A DNA stretch of 64,000 bases from Candidatus Nomurabacteria bacterium (lineage in GTDB: Bacteria > Patescibacteriota > Minisyncoccia > Phycocordibacterales > SBAW01): the NCBI GenBank assembly GCA_943349945.1, contig CALQZS010000001.1, positions 51,339 to 115,338 of the forward strand. Reading direction: 5' to 3'. This document shows positions 6,943 through 63,484 of the stretch, piece after piece; positions within the stretch are counted from its first letter, which is position 1, and each line of letters opens with the position of its first letter. The position numbers were made by a program, and so were the translations under genes. The notes beneath the pieces were generated by a model. It saw nothing but the letters and a program-made list of their open reading frames with translations. It did no database searches and was not told where the DNA came from.

Positions 6943-6994
6943 AGCCAAGATGGGGATAACTTTTTTGTGGGATAATTAAAGGCTTTTGTTTATT

Positions 6995-7015
6995 TGTGAC
7001 CTCACCGGGAATCAG
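6995..7015. repeat. direct repeat of the tRNA-Glu 3' end, 175 nt downstream of that tRNA
   Basis: tgtgacctcaccgggaatc here versus tgtgaccccaccgggaatc at 7170-7188 (1 mismatch). Confidence 0.7.
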
Positions 7016-7171
7016 CTGCACGAAATTGTTTAATTTTCATGGTCACAAGTCAAATTTTGTCGTCACAAAATTCGCTCGCGACCCCGGCTCGCGATTTTGC
7101 AAGTGCAAAACATCGCTACGCCCGTCCCAAAAGCAGAAAACCTGCCGCAGGGCAGGTATTTCTGTCTTTTG

Positions 7172-7243
7172 TGACCCCACCGGGAATCGAACCCGGATTA
7201 ACGGCTTGAAAAGCCGGCGTCCTAACCGTTAGACGATGGGGCC
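7172..7243 (-). tRNA. tRNA-Glu (anticodon TTC)
   Basis: Cloverleaf GGCCCCA...CTTTTCAAG...GGTTCGATTCC...TGGGGTCA. CCA is not encoded. Confidence 0.85.
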
Positions 7244-7327: not shown

Positions 7328-7414
7328 GGAGAGGTGGCTGAGTGGTCTAAGGCACCGGTTTCGAAAACCGGCATGGGGGAAACCTCATCGAGGGTTCAAA
7401 TCCCTCCCTCTCCG
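7328..7414 (+). tRNA. tRNA-Ser (anticodon CGA)
   Basis: GGAGAGG acceptor stem, anticodon loop TTCGAAA, long variable arm, and T-loop GGTTCAAATCC. Confidence 0.9.
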
Positions 7415-7420
7415 CAAGTA

Positions 7421-7450
7421 AAAAATACGCGCCATTTGGCGCCATTTTTT
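7421..7450. terminator. intrinsic terminator after tRNA-Ser (A-run, GCGCC/GGCGC stem, T-run)
   Basis: Sequence aaaaaatacgcgccatttggcgccatttttt. Confidence 0.7.
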
Positions 7451-7583
7451 AGCGAAGAGGAACAAAGTGCGGGGCACTTTGTGTGAGGTATTTGAAAGCC
7501 GGAACGGGCCCCGGACCAGCAGGTACGGGGGTGAGGCAGGGTCGTGCGGCCAAAGTTGCGACGGGAACTTTGGGACGCCTGAC

Positions 7584-7604
7584 CAAATCCCTCCCTCTCC
7601 GCAA
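7584..7604. repeat. exact 21-nt direct repeat of the tRNA-Ser(CGA) 3' end (caaatccctccctctccgcaa)
   Basis: Identical to 7397-7417. It lies 187 nt downstream of the tRNA, at the left edge of a low-GC island. Confidence 0.85.
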
Positions 7605-14672: not shown

Positions 14673-15167
14673 ATGGCTCGAGAAAAAAGATCACTATTTG
14701 ACTGGCTCACCGGCAGCGCTGGTGCAAGCGAGGACTATTCTTTTGAGGATCTCGAGAGCGGTGGTGCAGCCTATGCTCCACGCATACCCGCACATGCCGA
14801 GCGCTCTGTGCCGGTCATGAGCGTCGAGGAAGAGGCCGACGGCGAACTTGCGGTAGATGTCTACCAAACTCCTACCCACATCATCATCAAAGCCATGATA
14901 GCCGGTGTACGCCCCGAAGACCTAGACGTCTCTATTACCCGCGACATGGTGACACTGCGAGGCAAGCGAGAAAAACATGTCGAAGGCAACGCTGGGGACT
15001 TCTTCTTTTCGGAATTATACTGGGGCTCTTTTTCGCGCACTATTGTGCTGCCACAAGAGGTAGAAATAGAAGAAGCAGAAGCAAACGAGAAGCACGGCCT
15101 GCTTACTATACGCCTGCCCAAGCTCGACAAAGGCCGCCAAGCAAAGCTTAAAATAAAGTCTAACTGA
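14673..15167 (+). CDS. Hsp20/alpha-crystallin small heat-shock protein
   Basis: Alpha-crystallin domain with DVYQTP...GLLTIRLPK. Confidence 0.85.
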   Translation: MAREKRSLFDWLTGSAGASEDYSFEDLESGGAAYAPRIPAHAERSVPVMSVEEEADGELAVDVYQTPTHIIIKAMIAGVRPEDLDVSITRDMVTLRGKREKHVEGNAGDFFFSELYWGSFSRTIVLPQEVEIEEAEANEKHGLLTIRLPKLDKGRQAKLKIKSN

Positions 15168-15580: not shown

Positions 15581-15652
15581 GTTTTTGAACCTATATTACT
15601 AAAGTCCCGACGTTTTGTCGGGAGGCCGACCAATGCGTCGGCCCTACCCGAG
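15581..15652. repeat. ~60-nt twin-hairpin element (tcccgac-N5-gtcggga, ggccgac-N6-gtcggcc) followed by a 10-nt duplicate of the tRNA-Phe 5' end (ctacccgagc)
   Basis: The duplicate at 15643-15652 is identical to 15571-15580. A homologous module sits upstream of tRNA-Gly. Confidence 0.6.
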
Positions 15653-15698
15653 CATCTAACTGCTCCATCCTACCAAAAATAGGCAGAATAACAATATT

Positions 15699-16537: not shown

Positions 16538-16605
16538 AATGTTCTACCACTAAATCCCGACGCGAGGAGGTCGGGACCCCGACTAATCGTCGGGGCTACA
16601 CTCGC
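16538..16605. repeat. ~58-nt twin-hairpin element (tcccgac-N8-gtcggga, ccccgac-N5-gtcgggg) followed by a 10-nt duplicate of the tRNA-Gly 5' end (ctacactcgc)
   Basis: The duplicate at 16596-16605 is identical to 16528-16537. Same module as at tRNA-Phe. Confidence 0.6.
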
Positions 16606-17228: not shown

Positions 17229-19013
17229 CTAGTCTGACTGTATCATCTTCAAAAAAACTTCCTCGGGGATGTTTACTCGGCCGCGCTCTTTCATGCGCTC
17301 CTTACCCTTCTTTTGCTTTTCGCGCAGCTTCATCTTGCGGGTAATATCGCCGCCATACATGTGTTGTGTTACATCTTTGCTCAAGGCAGAAAGCGTCCGC
17401 GACGACACAATGCGCCCAGACGCAAGCGCCTGTATTTTTGTAGCAAACTGCTGGCGTGGCAGTATTTTATATAACTTCTCTACCGCCCCCACAGACTCCT
17501 CGTCGGTGCGGTGCCGCGCAATAATACGCGAAAACGCTGGCACAGGCTCTTCTGCGACCGCTATGTCCATACGCACCACGTCCGCCACGCGCAATTCGCG
17601 AAACTCGTACGACACGGATGCATAGCCAGACGAAACGCTCTTAAGTTTGTCGAAAAAGTTACGCATCAACTCACGCAACGGCAACACCACCCGCACAATA
17701 ACCCGCCCTTCTGAAAAGGTTTCGGTCGACTCGGTAGCTGCCTCGTGCTCAAACAACAGTGGCATAAGCATGCCCAAATATTCCCCGGGCAAAATAATCT
17801 CTGCTTCTACAAACGGCTCCCATATCTGGGCGATGTCGCCGTGGTCTGGAAACTGCGTGGGAGAGTATACCGTGTGCCGCTTGCCGTCTTTTGTCTCTAC
17901 CTCGTAGGTTATAGTAGGCGAGGTGATAACCAACGACAGCCCTGCTTCGCGCCGCAGGCGTTCCGTCACAATCTCCAAGTGAAGCATCCCGAGCAGCCCG
18001 CAACGAAAGCCCCGCCCAAGCATACCCGACGACTCTTCTTCAAAAGAAAGTGACGAGTCCGACAAGCGCAACCGAGACAATGCCTGGCGCAAAGCAACAA
18101 AATCACCCTGGTTTTCTGGATACAGCGACGCCCACACCACCGGACGAGGCTCGGCATACCCCGCAAGCGGCTCCGACCGTGTCCCATGCGCCCGCACCGT
18201 GTCGCCGACTCTCGCCAAGCCCGGCTCTTTGATGCCTGTTACCACATACCCAATAGTCCCCACGCTCAAGCCCTCGGACAAAGCCACAGGGAGCGGCGTA
18301 AAGGTGCCCACCTCGAGTGCATTAAACTTGCGTCCGGTTGCGGCAAACTCCAGAGTGTCGCCTTTTTTTATCTGACCATCAAACATTCGCAGATACACAA
18401 TAACGCCTTGGTGGTCGGAATATTGAAAGTCGAACACGAGCGCACGCGGAGGCAAACTTTGCAAAGCAACTAAAGATTTTGGCGGCGGCACCTGTTCTAT
18501 CACCGCCTTAAGCAACTCTTCTACCCCTTCGCCTGTTTTGCCCGAGCAAGTCAAAATAGACTCCGGCTCTATGCTCAAAAGCTGCGCCACCTGCACCCGC
18601 ACATCGTCGGTGCGTGCAAGCGGCGAATCAATTTTAGAAATGGCTGGCACAATAACTAGCCCAAGCTCGCGGGCAGTGCGCAGCGTGGTTAGTGTTTGCG
18701 CCTGTACGCCCTGGGTCGCATCCACCAACAAAATAGCACCCTCCACCGCAGTAAGCGCGCGCGACACTTCATAAGAAAAGTCTATGTGCCCTGGAGTGTC
18801 TATGAGGTGCAGCGTATAACCCCCGTAGCGCATCCGCACCGGCTGCATTTTTATGGTGATGCCGCGTTCGCGTTCCAGCTCCATAGAGTCCAGCACTTGG
18901 TCGCGCATGCGCCGTGGCTCTATGGTGCCTGTACACTCCAAAAAGCGGTCAGCCAAGGTCGACTTACCGTGGTCTATGTGGGCAATAATGCTGAAATTCC
19001 GTACCTGTTGCAT
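17229..19013 (-). CDS. lepA: elongation factor 4 (LepA)
   Basis: [18 protein letters not shown] with GTPase G-motifs and the LepA C-terminal domain. Confidence 0.95.
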
Positions 19014-23096: not shown

Positions 23097-23490
23097 CCCC
23101 GCTTTTGGCGGGGCGTCTACAATATCTAGCGCGCGCGTCTGTAAGCCGAGTTCTGTCTCCGCCGGTTGGCGGAAGCAACAATTTATCTAGCTCGGGCGTT
23201 ACCGCCCGAGTCAAGCGGCACTCCCACACAAGGTGGGCACGGCCTTGCACTTGGACAAGGATTTAGCTCCGACACCCCGAAGGGGTCGGAGTCCCGGTTT
23301 ATTACGTCGGGACCGTTTCACTCCCACTGAAGGGACTCGTCTCTGTTCGCACCTCTGGTGCCCGCTAGCAGCACCCGATGGGGATTACCCACTGCCTGTC
23401 TGCACTCCACATTTCTGTAGAGGCAAGTGCTCGGACTTTCCTCTCTGACTATTCGTCAGAGCTGTTACTCGACGCGCTCTCTATATTGTA
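23097..23490 (-). ncRNA. rnpB: RNase P RNA (bacterial type)
   Basis: On the minus strand: P4 region GAGGAAAGTCCGAGCAC, GGGAGTGAAACGG, ACAGAACTCGGCTTACAG, and P1 pairing between the 23471-23490 and 23120-23140 regions. A hairpin follows at 23095-23116. Ends are approximate. Confidence 0.75.
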
Positions 23491-23929
23491 CCACAATTTT
23501 TTGCCCAACGCCAATGCCCGCCGCGGCAATATAGCCCGCAGGAACCTCCAGCACATAGCGCGCAGGCGCGTGTGGATAAAAAATCTTGGGGTAGGTATTG
23601 GGAGTAACATTTGGCCATACGGTCACAATCATCCCGTCGTCATCTGCCCAAATAATATCAATCGCAAATCGCATATCCTTCATCCAAAAACCCCACTTTC
23701 CAACTTGTGGAAACACAAACAGCATGCCGCTCCCTTGGGCGAGCGACTCCCGCCCAGAGAGTCCTTGTTGGCGCTTTGCCGGAGTATCTGCAACATCCAC
23801 CACCAATGTGTTACTACCGACAGTGATGCGTTCTGCTGTAGGCGCGGGCGTATGCTGCACTTGAAATACGCCCCACACAAGCAAGGCGACAGCACAAAAA
23901 ACAATTAATCCGAGTATATATTTGATCAT
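23465..23929 (-). CDS. DUF192-domain protein, membrane-anchored
   Basis: MIKYILGLIVF anchor and MLFVF...WMKDMRFAIDIIW motifs. The last ~9 codons overlap the inferred rnpB 5' end. Confidence 0.65.
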   Translation of the reverse strand: MIKYILGLIVFCAVALLVWGVFQVQHTPAPTAERITVGSNTLVVDVADTPAKRQQGLSGRESLAQGSGMLFVFPQVGKWGFWMKDMRFAIDIIWADDDGMIVTVWPNVTPNTYPKIFYPHAPARYVLEVPAGYIAAAGIGVGQKIVVQYRERVE

Positions 23930-25287
23930 AGTTGCCCACCGCAAGCGCGCAAAAATTGTTCGTGCATTTTTTGCAAATCGCCCTCGGGCATGGCGCCAAA
24001 CGTGTGTGCCGCATCTTCTGACTGGTCGCGAAATTGCTCGTCGCGCTCCAACACCCCAGGATGCACCTCGAACGTGCGCTTGTTCCATCCTAAAATGTAG
24101 AGTCCCGAAAGCCGACGCACACGCGAGAGCGCCACATACCCCTGCCCAAACTCGAAGGTATCGTGCAAGTCCATCACTGCTTCATCTAAACTCATACCCT
24201 GGCTTTTATGCACAGTAATGGCCCACGCTAGCCGCAGCGGCACTTGCGTGACTCGCGCATGCACCTTGCCCCCCTCTTCCACAGTCCACTCCATGGGTTC
24301 CACCTCGATAGAGCGCCCACTGCGGGTTACCACTGTCGGATATCCGTTGTAGCCACTAAACCCCTCAACCATACCGAGCGTGCCGTTGACGTAGCCCTCT
24401 TTGGGATTGTTTTTTGTAAACATAACTGACGCCCCTTTTTTGAGCTGTAAAACTTCCGGCGATATACAGCTTTTAACCAGCGCCGCCACTATTCCTGCAG
24501 TCCCCTGCGACGACATCGCAAATGACTTTTGGGTGCCGGGCAGCGCGCGCAGTGTCATATCGTTAATCCTGTCTACATCAGCATTGTGCGAAAAAAGTTT
24601 TGGTGCATTTTTGGGCACTTTGTGTGGCGCGACTTTGCGTGCGGCAATATGTTCTAGGTGTGTATCTCTAAATGTGTTTTTGCGTATCGCGTCGAGCACG
24701 CTCAAGTATGCATGGTCGTCTTGTCGGTGCTGTTCGGTTAGATAACACACAATAGGGTTTGCCCGTGCCCACACCGCGGCATCGTAGGCAAAGTGCGTGC
24801 GTGACTCGTCGACAAATAGGTCGTTATCTTCTTCTTGGGGCACGGCGCGCACAATAGGCGGTAGCTGAAAAAAGTCTCCAACCAACACCACTTGGAGCCC
24901 CCCAAAAGGTCGCGCACTACCTAACACTTCACGACACACCGCATCAACCATCGCAAGCGTGTTGTCGGCAAGCATCGACACCTCGTCGATAATTAAAATT
25001 TTGGTGCGGCGGATTTGCTTGACCACCCGCTCGAGCGAGGCGATGCGGTCAAGCTCGTAGGCATCGAGCTTTTGTTTGATGCCTATACCGCTCCAAGAAT
25101 GTACGGTCATGCCGCCTATATGCGTGGCGGCAATACCTGTAGAGGCGGTAATTGCCGGCTCTATACCCCGTGCACGCAACCATGCAATGTACTGGTTTAT
25201 AGTGTGCGTCTTGCCGGCCCCCGGCTCGCCGGTTAAAAACACATTTGCGCCAGTTTTGAGTATGTCGAGCGCTGTTTCTTGAGTCAT
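23926..25287 (-). CDS. PIF1/RecD-like ATP-dependent DNA helicase
   Basis: Walker A (GEPGAGKTH), ILIIDEVSM, VGDFFQLPP and HKSQGMSLD. Confidence 0.8.
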   Translation of the reverse strand: MTQETALDILKTGANVFLTGEPGAGKTHTINQYIAWLRARGIEPAITASTGIAATHIGGMTVHSWSGIGIKQKLDAYELDRIASLERVVKQIRRTKILIIDEVSMLADNTLAMVDAVCREVLGSARPFGGLQVVLVGDFFQLPPIVRAVPQEEDNDLFVDESRTHFAYDAAVWARANPIVCYLTEQHRQDDHAYLSVLDAIRKNTFRDTHLEHIAARKVAPHKVPKNAPKLFSHNADVDRINDMTLRALPGTQKSFAMSSQGTAGIVAALVKSCISPEVLQLKKGASVMFTKNNPKEGYVNGTLGMVEGFSGYNGYPTVVTRSGRSIEVEPMEWTVEEGGKVHARVTQVPLRLAWAITVHKSQGMSLDEAVMDLHDTFEFGQGYVALSRVRRLSGLYILGWNKRTFEVHPGVLERDEQFRDQSEDAAHTFGAMPEGDLQKMHEQFLRACGGQL

Positions 25288-26480: not shown

Positions 26481-26741
26481 TTATACGTGCTGCATGTGTT
26501 CTGAAGTATATTTCTCCGCAATGGTCATACCCGGCCGGTAGACGAGCTCATGCCTGCCTGGCTTCTTTAGTTTGAAGCGCTCCTGTTGTACGTACACAAG
26601 GCCTTCTTCCGTTCGACGAATACGCTCGCAGAGAAAGACCCGACTGGTCAACACCAGCGCCTGCCCGATACCCGGAATATCGATTTCCGGAAGGCAAAAA
26701 CTGAACGAAGGCGGATATACTTTCTTAGGTTGCGACCACAT
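26481..26741 (-). CDS. hypothetical protein (86 aa)
   Basis: AAAGGAA RBS before the ATG, and a terminator directly downstream. No recognised motif. Confidence 0.35.
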   Translation of the reverse strand: MWSQPKKVYPPSFSFCLPEIDIPGIGQALVLTSRVFLCERIRRTEEGLVYVQQERFKLKKPGRHELVYRPGMTIAEKYTSEHMQHV

Positions 26742-26811
26742 TACGCGTTCCTTTGATAAATCTTGCAGGTACCATACCCTTAAATATAATACATCGAAAT
26801 ATAGAGAAGTA

Positions 26812-26893
26812 AAGCTGCGGAGGCGGAGAAACGATTCGGCTTCGATTCGCTGTCGCGCCGTCGCGCAACAGCGGTCTAGCCACCGCCTCGCAA
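26812..26893 (-). pseudogene. degenerate tRNA-Ser-like relic
   Basis: tgcggaggcggaga...gattcg matches the 3' end of tRNA-Ser(GGA) 190 nt away. Its 5' part (GCGAGGCGGTGGCTAGACC) is tRNA-like but cannot fold. Confidence 0.35.
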
Positions 26894-27007
26894 AAACTTT
26901 CTGCTGAAAGTTTTATGCTCCGGCGTTCGAATCTCTCACGCAAAGTACGCAGGTACTTTGCTCGCCTCTCGCAAAATCAAAACGCCCGTTTTGGGCGTTG
27001 GATTTTG

Positions 27008-27092
27008 CGGAGGCGGAGAGATTCGAACTCTCGGTGGGTTGCCCCACACAGACGTTCCAGGTCTGCGCACTAGACCACTATGCGACGCCTCC
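27008..27092 (-). tRNA. tRNA-Ser (anticodon GGA)
   Basis: GGAGGCGTCGCATAGTGGTCTAGTGCG, anticodon loop CTGGAAC, long variable arm, GAGTTCGAATCTC. CCA is not encoded. Confidence 0.85.
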
Positions 27093-63221: not shown

Positions 63222-63242
63222 TTGCTGCCAGACTAGGATTCG
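63222..63242. repeat. exact 21-nt direct repeat of the tRNA-Gln 3' end (ttgctgccagactaggattcg)
   Basis: Identical to 63411-63431, with an offset of 189 nt. Confidence 0.8.
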
Positions 63243-63413
63243 GTCACGAATCACTAACTATTTTACTTCGGCACCTCGTAAAATACTAAGTGTTCTCGAC
63301 CCCGACTCAAAAATTCATTCCCCGAACGAATTTTTTCCGTCCTTCGAATCCTCAACTTCAAGCAGATTAGCGCACAGAAAAACCGCCCTCTCGGGCGGCC
63401 ATCTGTGCGCTTG

Positions 63414-63484
63414 CTGCCAGACTAGGATTCGAACCTAGATAAACAGATTCAGAGTCTGTTGTCCTACCATTAGACGATCTGGCA
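63414..63484 (-). tRNA. tRNA-Gln (anticodon CTG)
   Basis: U1:A72 acceptor (TGCCAGA / TCTGGCA), anticodon loop CTCTGAA, GGTTCGAATCC. CCA is not encoded. Confidence 0.85.

Follow-up and report, generated by a model that had tools for sequence, protein, structure and literature searches.

The 190-nt stretch that follows tRNA-Ser(GGA) in the 64-kb window (the whole stretch of DNA analysed here) is probably a miniature integrative cassette, devoid of genes and of a recombinase of its own, that sits at the attachment block of a tRNA gene, a block spanning the T-loop through the 3' end. The observations behind this reading are the repeat structure, the fold, the link with a missing CCA, an insertion next to native flanking sequence in one relative (L016), tandem and cargo-carrying forms of the module, and polymorphism among strains.

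Layout of the module behind tRNA-Ser(GGA)

The tRNA-Ser(GGA) gene, identified by both ARAGORN and Rfam, ends in ...CGCCTCC-G-CA, that is, in the discriminator followed by CA, and does not encode CCA. The gene and the elements downstream of it are listed here in the order in which the tRNA strand is read.

27007-27092, minus strand: tRNA-Ser(GGA); its last ~22 nt, from the T-loop to CA, constitute repeat copy A1
26973-27006, minus strand: terminator-like palindrome AAAATCC-AACGCCC-aaaac-GGGCGTT-TTGATTTT (spacer), with the core stem-loop at 26981-26999 followed by a T-run
26961-26972, minus strand: inverted copy A', part 1 (GCGAGAGGCGAG), complementary to the acceptor 3' strand, discriminator and CA of the tRNA-Ser(GGA) gene
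26941-26960, minus strand: branch hairpin CAAAGTAC-ctgc-GTACTTTG, which splits A' at the acceptor/T-stem junction
26925-26937, minus strand: inverted copy A', part 2 (GAGAGATTCGAAC), the exact 13-nt reverse complement of 27016-27028, which is the T-stem 3' strand plus T-loop of the tRNA
26893-26914, minus strand: interior hairpin 1, AAAACTTTC-agca-GAAAGTTTT (AAAACTTT..AAAGTTTT)
26849-26891, minus strand: interior segment GCGAGGCGGTGGCTAGACC (26873-26891) and hairpin 2, GCTGTTGCGC-gacg-GCGCGACAGC (26849-26872), both in a multibranch fold
26816-26837, minus strand: distal copy A2, a direct repeat of the tRNA 3' end (GAATC-gtt-TCTCCGCCTCCGCA) that pairs with A' and closes the module
26786-26813, minus strand: promoter-like TTTACT-16-TATTAT directly past the distal copy, facing an 86-aa ORF (26481-26741) and marking the module end

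The sequence TGCGGAGGCGGAGA (27006-27019) is repeated exactly at 26816-26829, at an offset of 190 nt; beyond these 14 identical nucleotides, the distal copy carries a 3-nt insertion (AAC) and then resumes with GATTCG. An exact 13-mer of the tRNA end occurs at only two sites in the 64 kb, both of them the expected ones, and no third copy that would mark a larger island was found within the window. The GC-rich hairpin and T-run 3' of the gene (26981-26999) have the make-up of an intrinsic terminator. No promoter-like site was seen between the tRNA and the module, and the 190-nt module contains no real ORF. Much of this layout had been anticipated in a preliminary description drawn from the letters of the sequence, which correctly reported the 3'-end copy with its 3-nt indel, the succession of tRNA, terminator, spacer and 3'-end copy with its positional regularity, and three hairpins between copy and tRNA, placed here at 26981-26999, 26941-26960 and 26893-26914. 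The T-loop-like fragment mentioned there is likewise present, but its identity as an exact inverted copy of the T-arm was only partly recognized, and the description missed the inverted copy as such, the link with the missing CCA, the evidence of insertion and polymorphism, and the serine-recombinase elements at the same sites.

The same description took the sequence around the distal copy for a degenerate tRNA-like relic, which would make the locus an ordinary tandem tRNA duplication with a decayed second copy. A 79-nt stretch does start with GCGAGGCGG and end in a tRNA 3' end, and the two can pair. Nevertheless, no tRNA was detected in 26812-27006 by ARAGORN, at Rfam gathering thresholds or by Rfam at E<=10, and the part resembling a tRNA 5' end is missing from the other modules described below. 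Tandem decay would also fail to account for the inverted copy, for motifs common to the modules but foreign to tRNAs, for equal spacing at four tRNAs and for the signs of insertion, so that this reading is effectively refuted; the locus is neither a functional second tRNA nor tandem gene decay lacking regularity.

The variable region 3' of tRNA-Ser(GGA) holds a PIF1-like helicase gene (23926-25287), a YbjQ gene, an AOX-like gene and the 86-aa ORF, a set that is missing at that position in most relatives and that may itself be island cargo. Elsewhere, the window encodes GroEL, LemA, an M48 peptidase, FtsZ, aminoacyl-tRNA synthetases and a class A RNase P RNA (23126-23480), the last a divergent molecule, of the sort that CPR bacteria usually have, scoring 106 bits against a gathering cutoff of 100. 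The GroEL has its best matches in Adlerbacteria MAGs, in line with a chromosome segment of a Candidatus Adlerbacteria bacterium (Patescibacteria/CPR). Modules are also where five independent assemblies of this species (L173, L175, L176, L181 and L193) end (~26919-26942 and ~63330), a hint of repeats or of population heterogeneity.

A family of folded modules at tRNA genes that lack an encoded CCA

Four of the eight window tRNAs are accompanied by a copy of their own 3' end: Glu-UUC, Ser-CGA, Ser-GGA and Gln-CUG, with repeat periods of 175, 187, 190 and 189 nt, respectively, which bears out the earlier remark that three further tRNAs follow the same plan. The copies at Glu-UUC, Ser-CGA and Gln-CUG are 11-21 nt long; the chance expectation for 19-mer copies is 0.00-0.02 per window. 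Terminator-type hairpins equivalent to the one at 26981-26999 stand 3' of these three tRNAs as well.

7416-7604, plus strand: Ser(CGA) module, with the tRNA at 7328-7415, terminator at 7420-7450 and distal copy at 7584-7604
7451-7462 and 7485-7496, plus strand: A' of the Ser(CGA) module, split by a hairpin at 7463-7481
63222-63412, minus strand: Gln(CUG) module, with the tRNA at 63413-63484, terminator at 63370-63410, A' at 63343-63365 and distal copy at 63222-63242
6993-7170, minus strand: Glu(UUC) module, with the tRNA at 7171-7243, terminator at 7129-7170, a weak A' and the distal copy, with one mismatch, at 6993-7013

All four module-bearing tRNA genes of the window lack an encoded CCA, and no copy of their own 3' end was found at the window tRNAs that do encode it (Val, Phe and Gly). 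A survey of 76 tRNAs from the window and 160 fetched loci, in which copies that are simply the next tRNA gene were left out, extended this link: a downstream direct copy accompanies 10 of the 34 CCA-less genes and none of the 42 CCA-encoding ones (Fisher p=1.4e-4), all ten being from Patescibacteria. The automatic classing put at least one CCA-bearing gene (L018) among the CCA-less ones, so that the test is conservative. Metagenome loci recovered through an aminoacyl-tRNA synthetase anchor were mostly from distant genomes and served as controls. Among the Patescibacteria tRNA genes without an encoded CC(A), 15 of 17 end in discriminator plus CA (27005-27006, 7416-7417, 63411-63412 and 7169-7170 in the window, plus 11 tRNAs in loci L007-L084). 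This tail looks like CCA minus one C and appears to mark a 3' end supplied by the element.

The module is a structured segment of 160-190 nt, with arms that repeat the tRNA block from T-loop to 3' end, one in inverted and one in direct orientation. The direct repeats always begin in the T-loop (C56/G57) and end at discriminator plus CA, and both arms fit the adjacent tRNA in every module. The modules fold far more stably than shuffled sequence on both strands (z about -5 to -12), the closing helix being formed by A' and the distal copy. As single-stranded DNA, the tRNA from T-loop to 3' end, the terminator and A' make up one continuous palindrome (z -6.8 to -13), from which a conserved hairpin branches off at the acceptor/T-stem junction. 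This branch hairpin, CAAAGTNC-N4-GNACTTTG, is common to modules at different tRNAs, with compensatory changes, and also occurs in the Ser-CGA module, in the tRNA-Phe modules of L083 and in L007. A second common element is the GAGnCnGGGTCG...GTGACC helix; its 3' strand lies directly against the distal copy. Non-tRNA interior motifs are shared by the Ser-GGA, Ser-CGA, Gln and Glu modules of the window and by the Phe and Ser modules of relatives; the modules at these different tRNAs therefore belong to one family. Near-identical dispersed copies were not found: when the modules were compared by BLAST with the window and with 32 Patescibacteria loci, they matched only themselves and tRNAs, bar one 20-mer common to L029 and L007.

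The continuity of the palindrome, which is centred on the terminator loop, would also be expected of a purely local origin, in which repair of a break close to the end of the tRNA, primed by fold-back at the terminator hairpin and accompanied by template switching, produced first an inverted and then a direct duplication. In keeping with such a course, the inverted and direct copies have a common boundary in the T-loop, and L009 (12498-12585) has a palindrome by itself: a CCA-bearing tRNA-Ser(GGA), a terminator and TGGCGGAGACG..., an inverted 3'-end copy that includes CCA, with the distal direct copy absent and the palindrome alone folding at z = -11. Independent repair events would not, however, give non-tRNA motifs and a branch hairpin common to different tRNAs and genomes, nor the regular sizes (187-190 nt in three window modules and in L083), nor a CA tail common to nearly all. 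We consider local repair very unlikely.

Repeats of another kind stand on the 5' side of two CCA-encoding genes. Upstream of tRNA-Phe (15605-15653) and tRNA-Gly (16542-16605), a copy of the first 10 nt of the tRNA itself (GCTCGGGTAG and GCGAGTGTAG, respectively) lies 40-75 nt before the gene. These 5'-end copies are succeeded by a common double hairpin (sCCGAC-N-GTCGGs, with TCCCGAC-N-GTCGGGA after it) and, at tRNA-Gly, by a copy of positions 11-23 in addition. The double hairpin also occurs at 1387-1422, away from any tRNA (7 matches against 0.65 expected), and has the appearance of a REP-like element with a GTAG tag (cf. PMC3733652) lodged within a displaced 5' tRNA fragment.

Signs of insertion, polymorphism and recombinases at the same tRNA ends

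Evidence of insertion comes from L016, in which the proximal tRNA end is CA followed by a module of 93-nt period, and the distal copy ends in CCGCCA followed by the flank TTTGTATCGGA..GACC. The same flank stands directly 3' of the CC(A)-bearing tRNA in the module-free loci L006, L010, L027 and L030. Because CCA and native flank both match these module-free relatives, the distal copy of L016 probably represents the ancestral tRNA end. The extended motif TTTGTATCGGA-nn-GACC-n-GAG, found directly 3' of tRNA-Ser(GGA) in distantly related Patescibacteria (L006:13264-13300; L010:12462-12500; L027:15112-15150; L030:13995-14030; L016:15063-15100), may serve as an attachment site, act as a promoter or belong to a small RNA. 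Also in L016, 26 nt right 3' of the tRNA (GCAGATTTGGAAYGCAGTGGAAAAGC) return 2.5 kb downstream in the same orientation (14966-14991 and 17473-17503) and may be the ends of another inserted segment.

Modules, which are seen at Phe, Ser and Glu tRNAs of relatives, vary in number, state and content. The CA-tailed tRNA-Phe of L083 is followed by two identical 189-nt modules in tandem, that of L082 by a decayed module without a distal copy, and that of the window, which encodes CCA, by none. L007 has a 1.85-kb version that agrees with the modules in its 5' arm, its hairpin and its GT(G/A)ACC|A junction (GTAACC|A in this locus) and that carries a PMT_2 glycosyltransferase gene. Synteny upstream of tRNA-Ser(GGA) is constant in about 25 relatives, nearly all of which have a different stretch between the tRNA and the conserved block that comes next. 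Within the species, contigs with a 100% identical M48 gene mostly have the window allele; in L174, an identical tRNA-Ser(GGA) ends in a complete CCA, and other DNA lies behind it. Among all conspecific contigs sampled, both the Gln and the Ser(CGA) module are fixed. A clean pair of empty and filled sites was not found within one species, the alternative alleles holding other elements.

These patterns bear on the possibility that the module is a functional structured RNA, either a tRNA 3' trailer or a separate small RNA, in which the helix between A' and the distal copy, similar to an acceptor/T-arm, could serve 3' processing of CCA-less precursors, act as a decoy or insulator for read-through, or yield a processed stable RNA. 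The very stable multibranched fold is what such a role would predict, as are interior helices conserved across tRNAs and genomes, a branch hairpin with compensatory changes, the strict link of modules to genes that need post-transcriptional CCA addition, and the fixation of the Gln and Ser(CGA) modules among strains. The sense strand is purine-rich, and the count of G.U pairs, 34 on the tRNA-sense strand against 20 on the antisense strand, leans weakly towards the former, although it is confounded by base composition, specifically by G-richness, and both strands fold nearly equally well. Further against an RNA role, a good intrinsic terminator intervenes between tRNA and module with no promoter-like site there, modules are decayed or missing at orthologous tRNAs of close relatives (L007, L082 and the window tRNA-Phe), a 1.5-kb gene interrupts one module, A' complements the gene tail GCA rather than the mature GCCA end, and an Rfam match is absent. 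On this balance, a functional RNA is a possible but rather unlikely alternative. None of the four modules matched a structured RNA family of Rfam 15; the only hits were tRNA-related and below threshold, permuted tmRNA, for instance, scoring 15 bits where the cutoff is 47. A primer-binding site formed by A' with the mature tRNA was rejected, the complement of A' being GCA and not GCCA.

The tRNA ends in question also receive elements of a different type, with large serine recombinase genes (Resolvase, Recombinase and Zn ribbon domains) at the following positions.

L001:11965-13290: 441-aa large serine recombinase gene, ending 11 nt from the CCA of tRNA-Ser(GGA)
L012:6972-7765: homologue of the L001 recombinase
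L013:13724-13996: homologue of the L001 recombinase
L186:2278-4005: 575-aa large serine recombinase ORF at tRNA-Glu, reading into the tRNA antisense

The last of these is found in the conspecific contigs L183 and L186, whose identity with the window breaks off 3-5 nt past the CA tail of tRNA-Glu, at the start of the Glu module. In L174, a 51-nt flank (L174:4975-5021) matches the flank of L012 and, judging from this flank only, may belong to a serine-recombinase element; blastx of the flank gave no recombinase match. These elements show that the tRNA ends are integration hotspots and active sites; their presence does not establish the serine recombinases as movers of the modules. In addition, ARAGORN reports in L001 (11864-11953) a second tRNA, 'Ser(ACT)', 27 nt past tRNA-Ser(GGA); with its odd anticodon, this may be an unusual tRNA or simply misread.

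The attachment sites of large serine recombinases are quasi-palindromic, ~40-50 bp long, with a central dinucleotide and an adjacent recombinase gene. The modules could belong to such elements, as miniature derivatives that keep the two att ends or as an attB 'landing pad'. Recombinase genes abutting tRNA-Ser(GGA) in L001, L012 and L013, the flank that L174 has in common with L012 and the junction at the start of the Glu module in L183 and L186 all accord with this, and the arm length of ~20 nt is similar to a serine-recombinase half-site. Conversely, the recombinase-proximal junctions that were compared have no terminator, inverted copy or similarity to a module, and identity between the two recombinases is only 27%. 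Serine recombinases do not need a long identity block, and alone they give neither 20-nt direct repeats nor a change from CCA to CA. No serine recombinase gene adjoins a module; in sister strains, the genes abut the same tRNA ends instead. Membership of the modules in serine-recombinase elements thus seems improbable.

The search for a recombinase gene linked with the modules was negative: there is no recombinase, transposase or reverse transcriptase among the ~45 ORFs of the window, no recombinase downstream of the CA-tailed tRNAs in L022 and L011, and none in or adjoining any module. Three probes recovered no autonomous relative or attP from viral contigs; the branch hairpin and the interior helix plus GTGACCGAATCC gave only chance hits in unrelated phages, and the CA-tailed Ser(GGA) block gave zero hits.

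Putative integration mechanism and comparison with known systems

Under the cassette reading, for which we infer site-specific recombination, the direction of events and mobilization in trans, a crossover at or near the T-loop would fuse the tRNA gene with DNA from outside. This DNA would bring a new 3' end, with discriminator plus CA replacing CCA, along with a terminator, an inverted copy of that end and a short structured interior, and the former tRNA 3' end would be displaced ~190 nt downstream, persisting as an attR-like direct repeat. The tRNA would keep its function because its 3' end is regenerated, and CCA would be added post-transcriptionally to tRNAs with replaced ends. A single element family would have acted in this way at the Glu, Ser(CGA) and Gln tRNAs here and at the Phe, Ser and Glu tRNAs of relatives, with a recombinase supplied in trans and with cassettes that could duplicate in tandem, carry a cargo gene and decay over time.

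Two features fit this scheme less simply. Most distal copies end in CA and not in CCA; they are therefore not just ancestral ends left intact, and the scheme requires that integration or homogenization took place repeatedly. In addition, a site-specific recombinase alone does not account for both arms fitting each different tRNA. The regular size, the strong fold and the motifs kept between distant genomes could alternatively be the outcome of selection for an RNA or DNA structure that has a function.

Among tRNA-integrating elements, the regenerated gene and the displaced fragment mark the element ends, and tandem arrays are known (PMC4383910; PMC9897764); the T-loop and the T/acceptor junction are listed among their three crossover subsites (PMC4383910). 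The modules resemble the tyrosine-integrase islands and prophages catalogued by Islander in their intact tRNA with a displaced direct 3' fragment, their repeat block from a recognized crossover subsite to the 3' end, their tandem arrays and their location in a variable hotspot. By contrast, no integrase lies inside them (the cargo of L007 being a glycosyltransferase), they measure 93-190 bp rather than kilobases and are usually gene-less, an inverted att-block copy lies in their interior, their fold is conserved, and homologous modules occupy four different tRNAs in one small genome.

CIME-like elements keep their att sites, have lost their recombination genes and need a recombinase in trans. 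The modules are like them in having flanking att-like repeats and no recombinase of their own, but known CIMEs derive from larger elements by deletion, measure kilobases and occupy one site, whereas the modules form a regular, structured family of ~190 nt spread over several tRNAs. Casposons and similar elements create a target-site duplication at tRNA 3' ends of fixed length, 14-15 nt, and such a duplication automatically matches the tRNA that was hit. Here, too, copies of the tRNA 3' end flank the insert. Unlike casposons, however, the modules have repeats of ~20 nt, lack terminal inverted repeats at the insert ends and have no Cas1-like gene; in L031, the direct repeat runs 19 nt past the tRNA end (TGTGGTTGTATTTTTTCGC) to ~38 nt in total (17889-17926 and 18040-18077), longer than elsewhere, which argues against a fixed-length target duplication. 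Nor would simple target duplication make the proximal and distal copies of L016 differ (CA versus CCA). MITEs and REP-like repeats are similarly small, non-coding and strongly hairpin-forming. A MITE was rejected, as the module arms copy the adjacent tRNA and the interiors have no BLAST similarity beyond the one 20-mer; the arms are tRNA-specific rather than family-specific, near-identical dispersed interiors are lacking, and there is no short fixed target duplication.

Integron attC sites and the attP(+) site of CTXphi, a substrate of XerCD, are imperfect palindromes that fold such that the stem imitates the duplex target and carries an extrahelical feature. The module palindrome likewise folds stably as single-stranded DNA into a stem that equals the tRNA from T-loop to 3' end, and the order of module parts (target copy, short loop, inverted copy, remainder, target copy) is, by analogy only, that expected of folded-hairpin integration. 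In contrast to these systems, the target is a tRNA gene end and not attI or dif, the core motifs are not integron R/L boxes, and no IntI or XerCD-type recombinase is encoded in the window. The long palindrome mimicking the tRNA end nonetheless suggests, by this analogy, a folded-hairpin attachment site. A bolder version of this reading, which we regard as unlikely, is that the modules represent a new class of non-autonomous mobile element: the hairpin, composed of the tRNA-end copy, a terminator loop and the inverted copy with its branch hairpin, would be the att site of a single-stranded form that integrates in the manner of CTXphi or integron cassettes, could be retargeted by changing both arms, and would convert tRNA ends from CCA to CA across Patescibacteria genomes as a side effect.

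Mobile DNA that integrates into tRNA genes is textbook knowledge, and Patescibacteria are thought to be poor in mobile DNA. To our knowledge, known tRNA-integrating elements are kilobase-sized and carry their own integrase. The modules described here form a family of gene-less, folded cassettes of 93-190 bp at several tRNA genes of a tiny Patescibacteria genome, and they can mislead tRNA annotation, island finders and assemblers. They mark tRNA ends as recombination hotspots in common with serine-recombinase elements. If mobile, the cassettes would be among the smallest site-specific integrative units described, and their spread would explain the loss of the encoded CCA, with the resulting CA ends, and the new terminators in a subset of tRNA genes.
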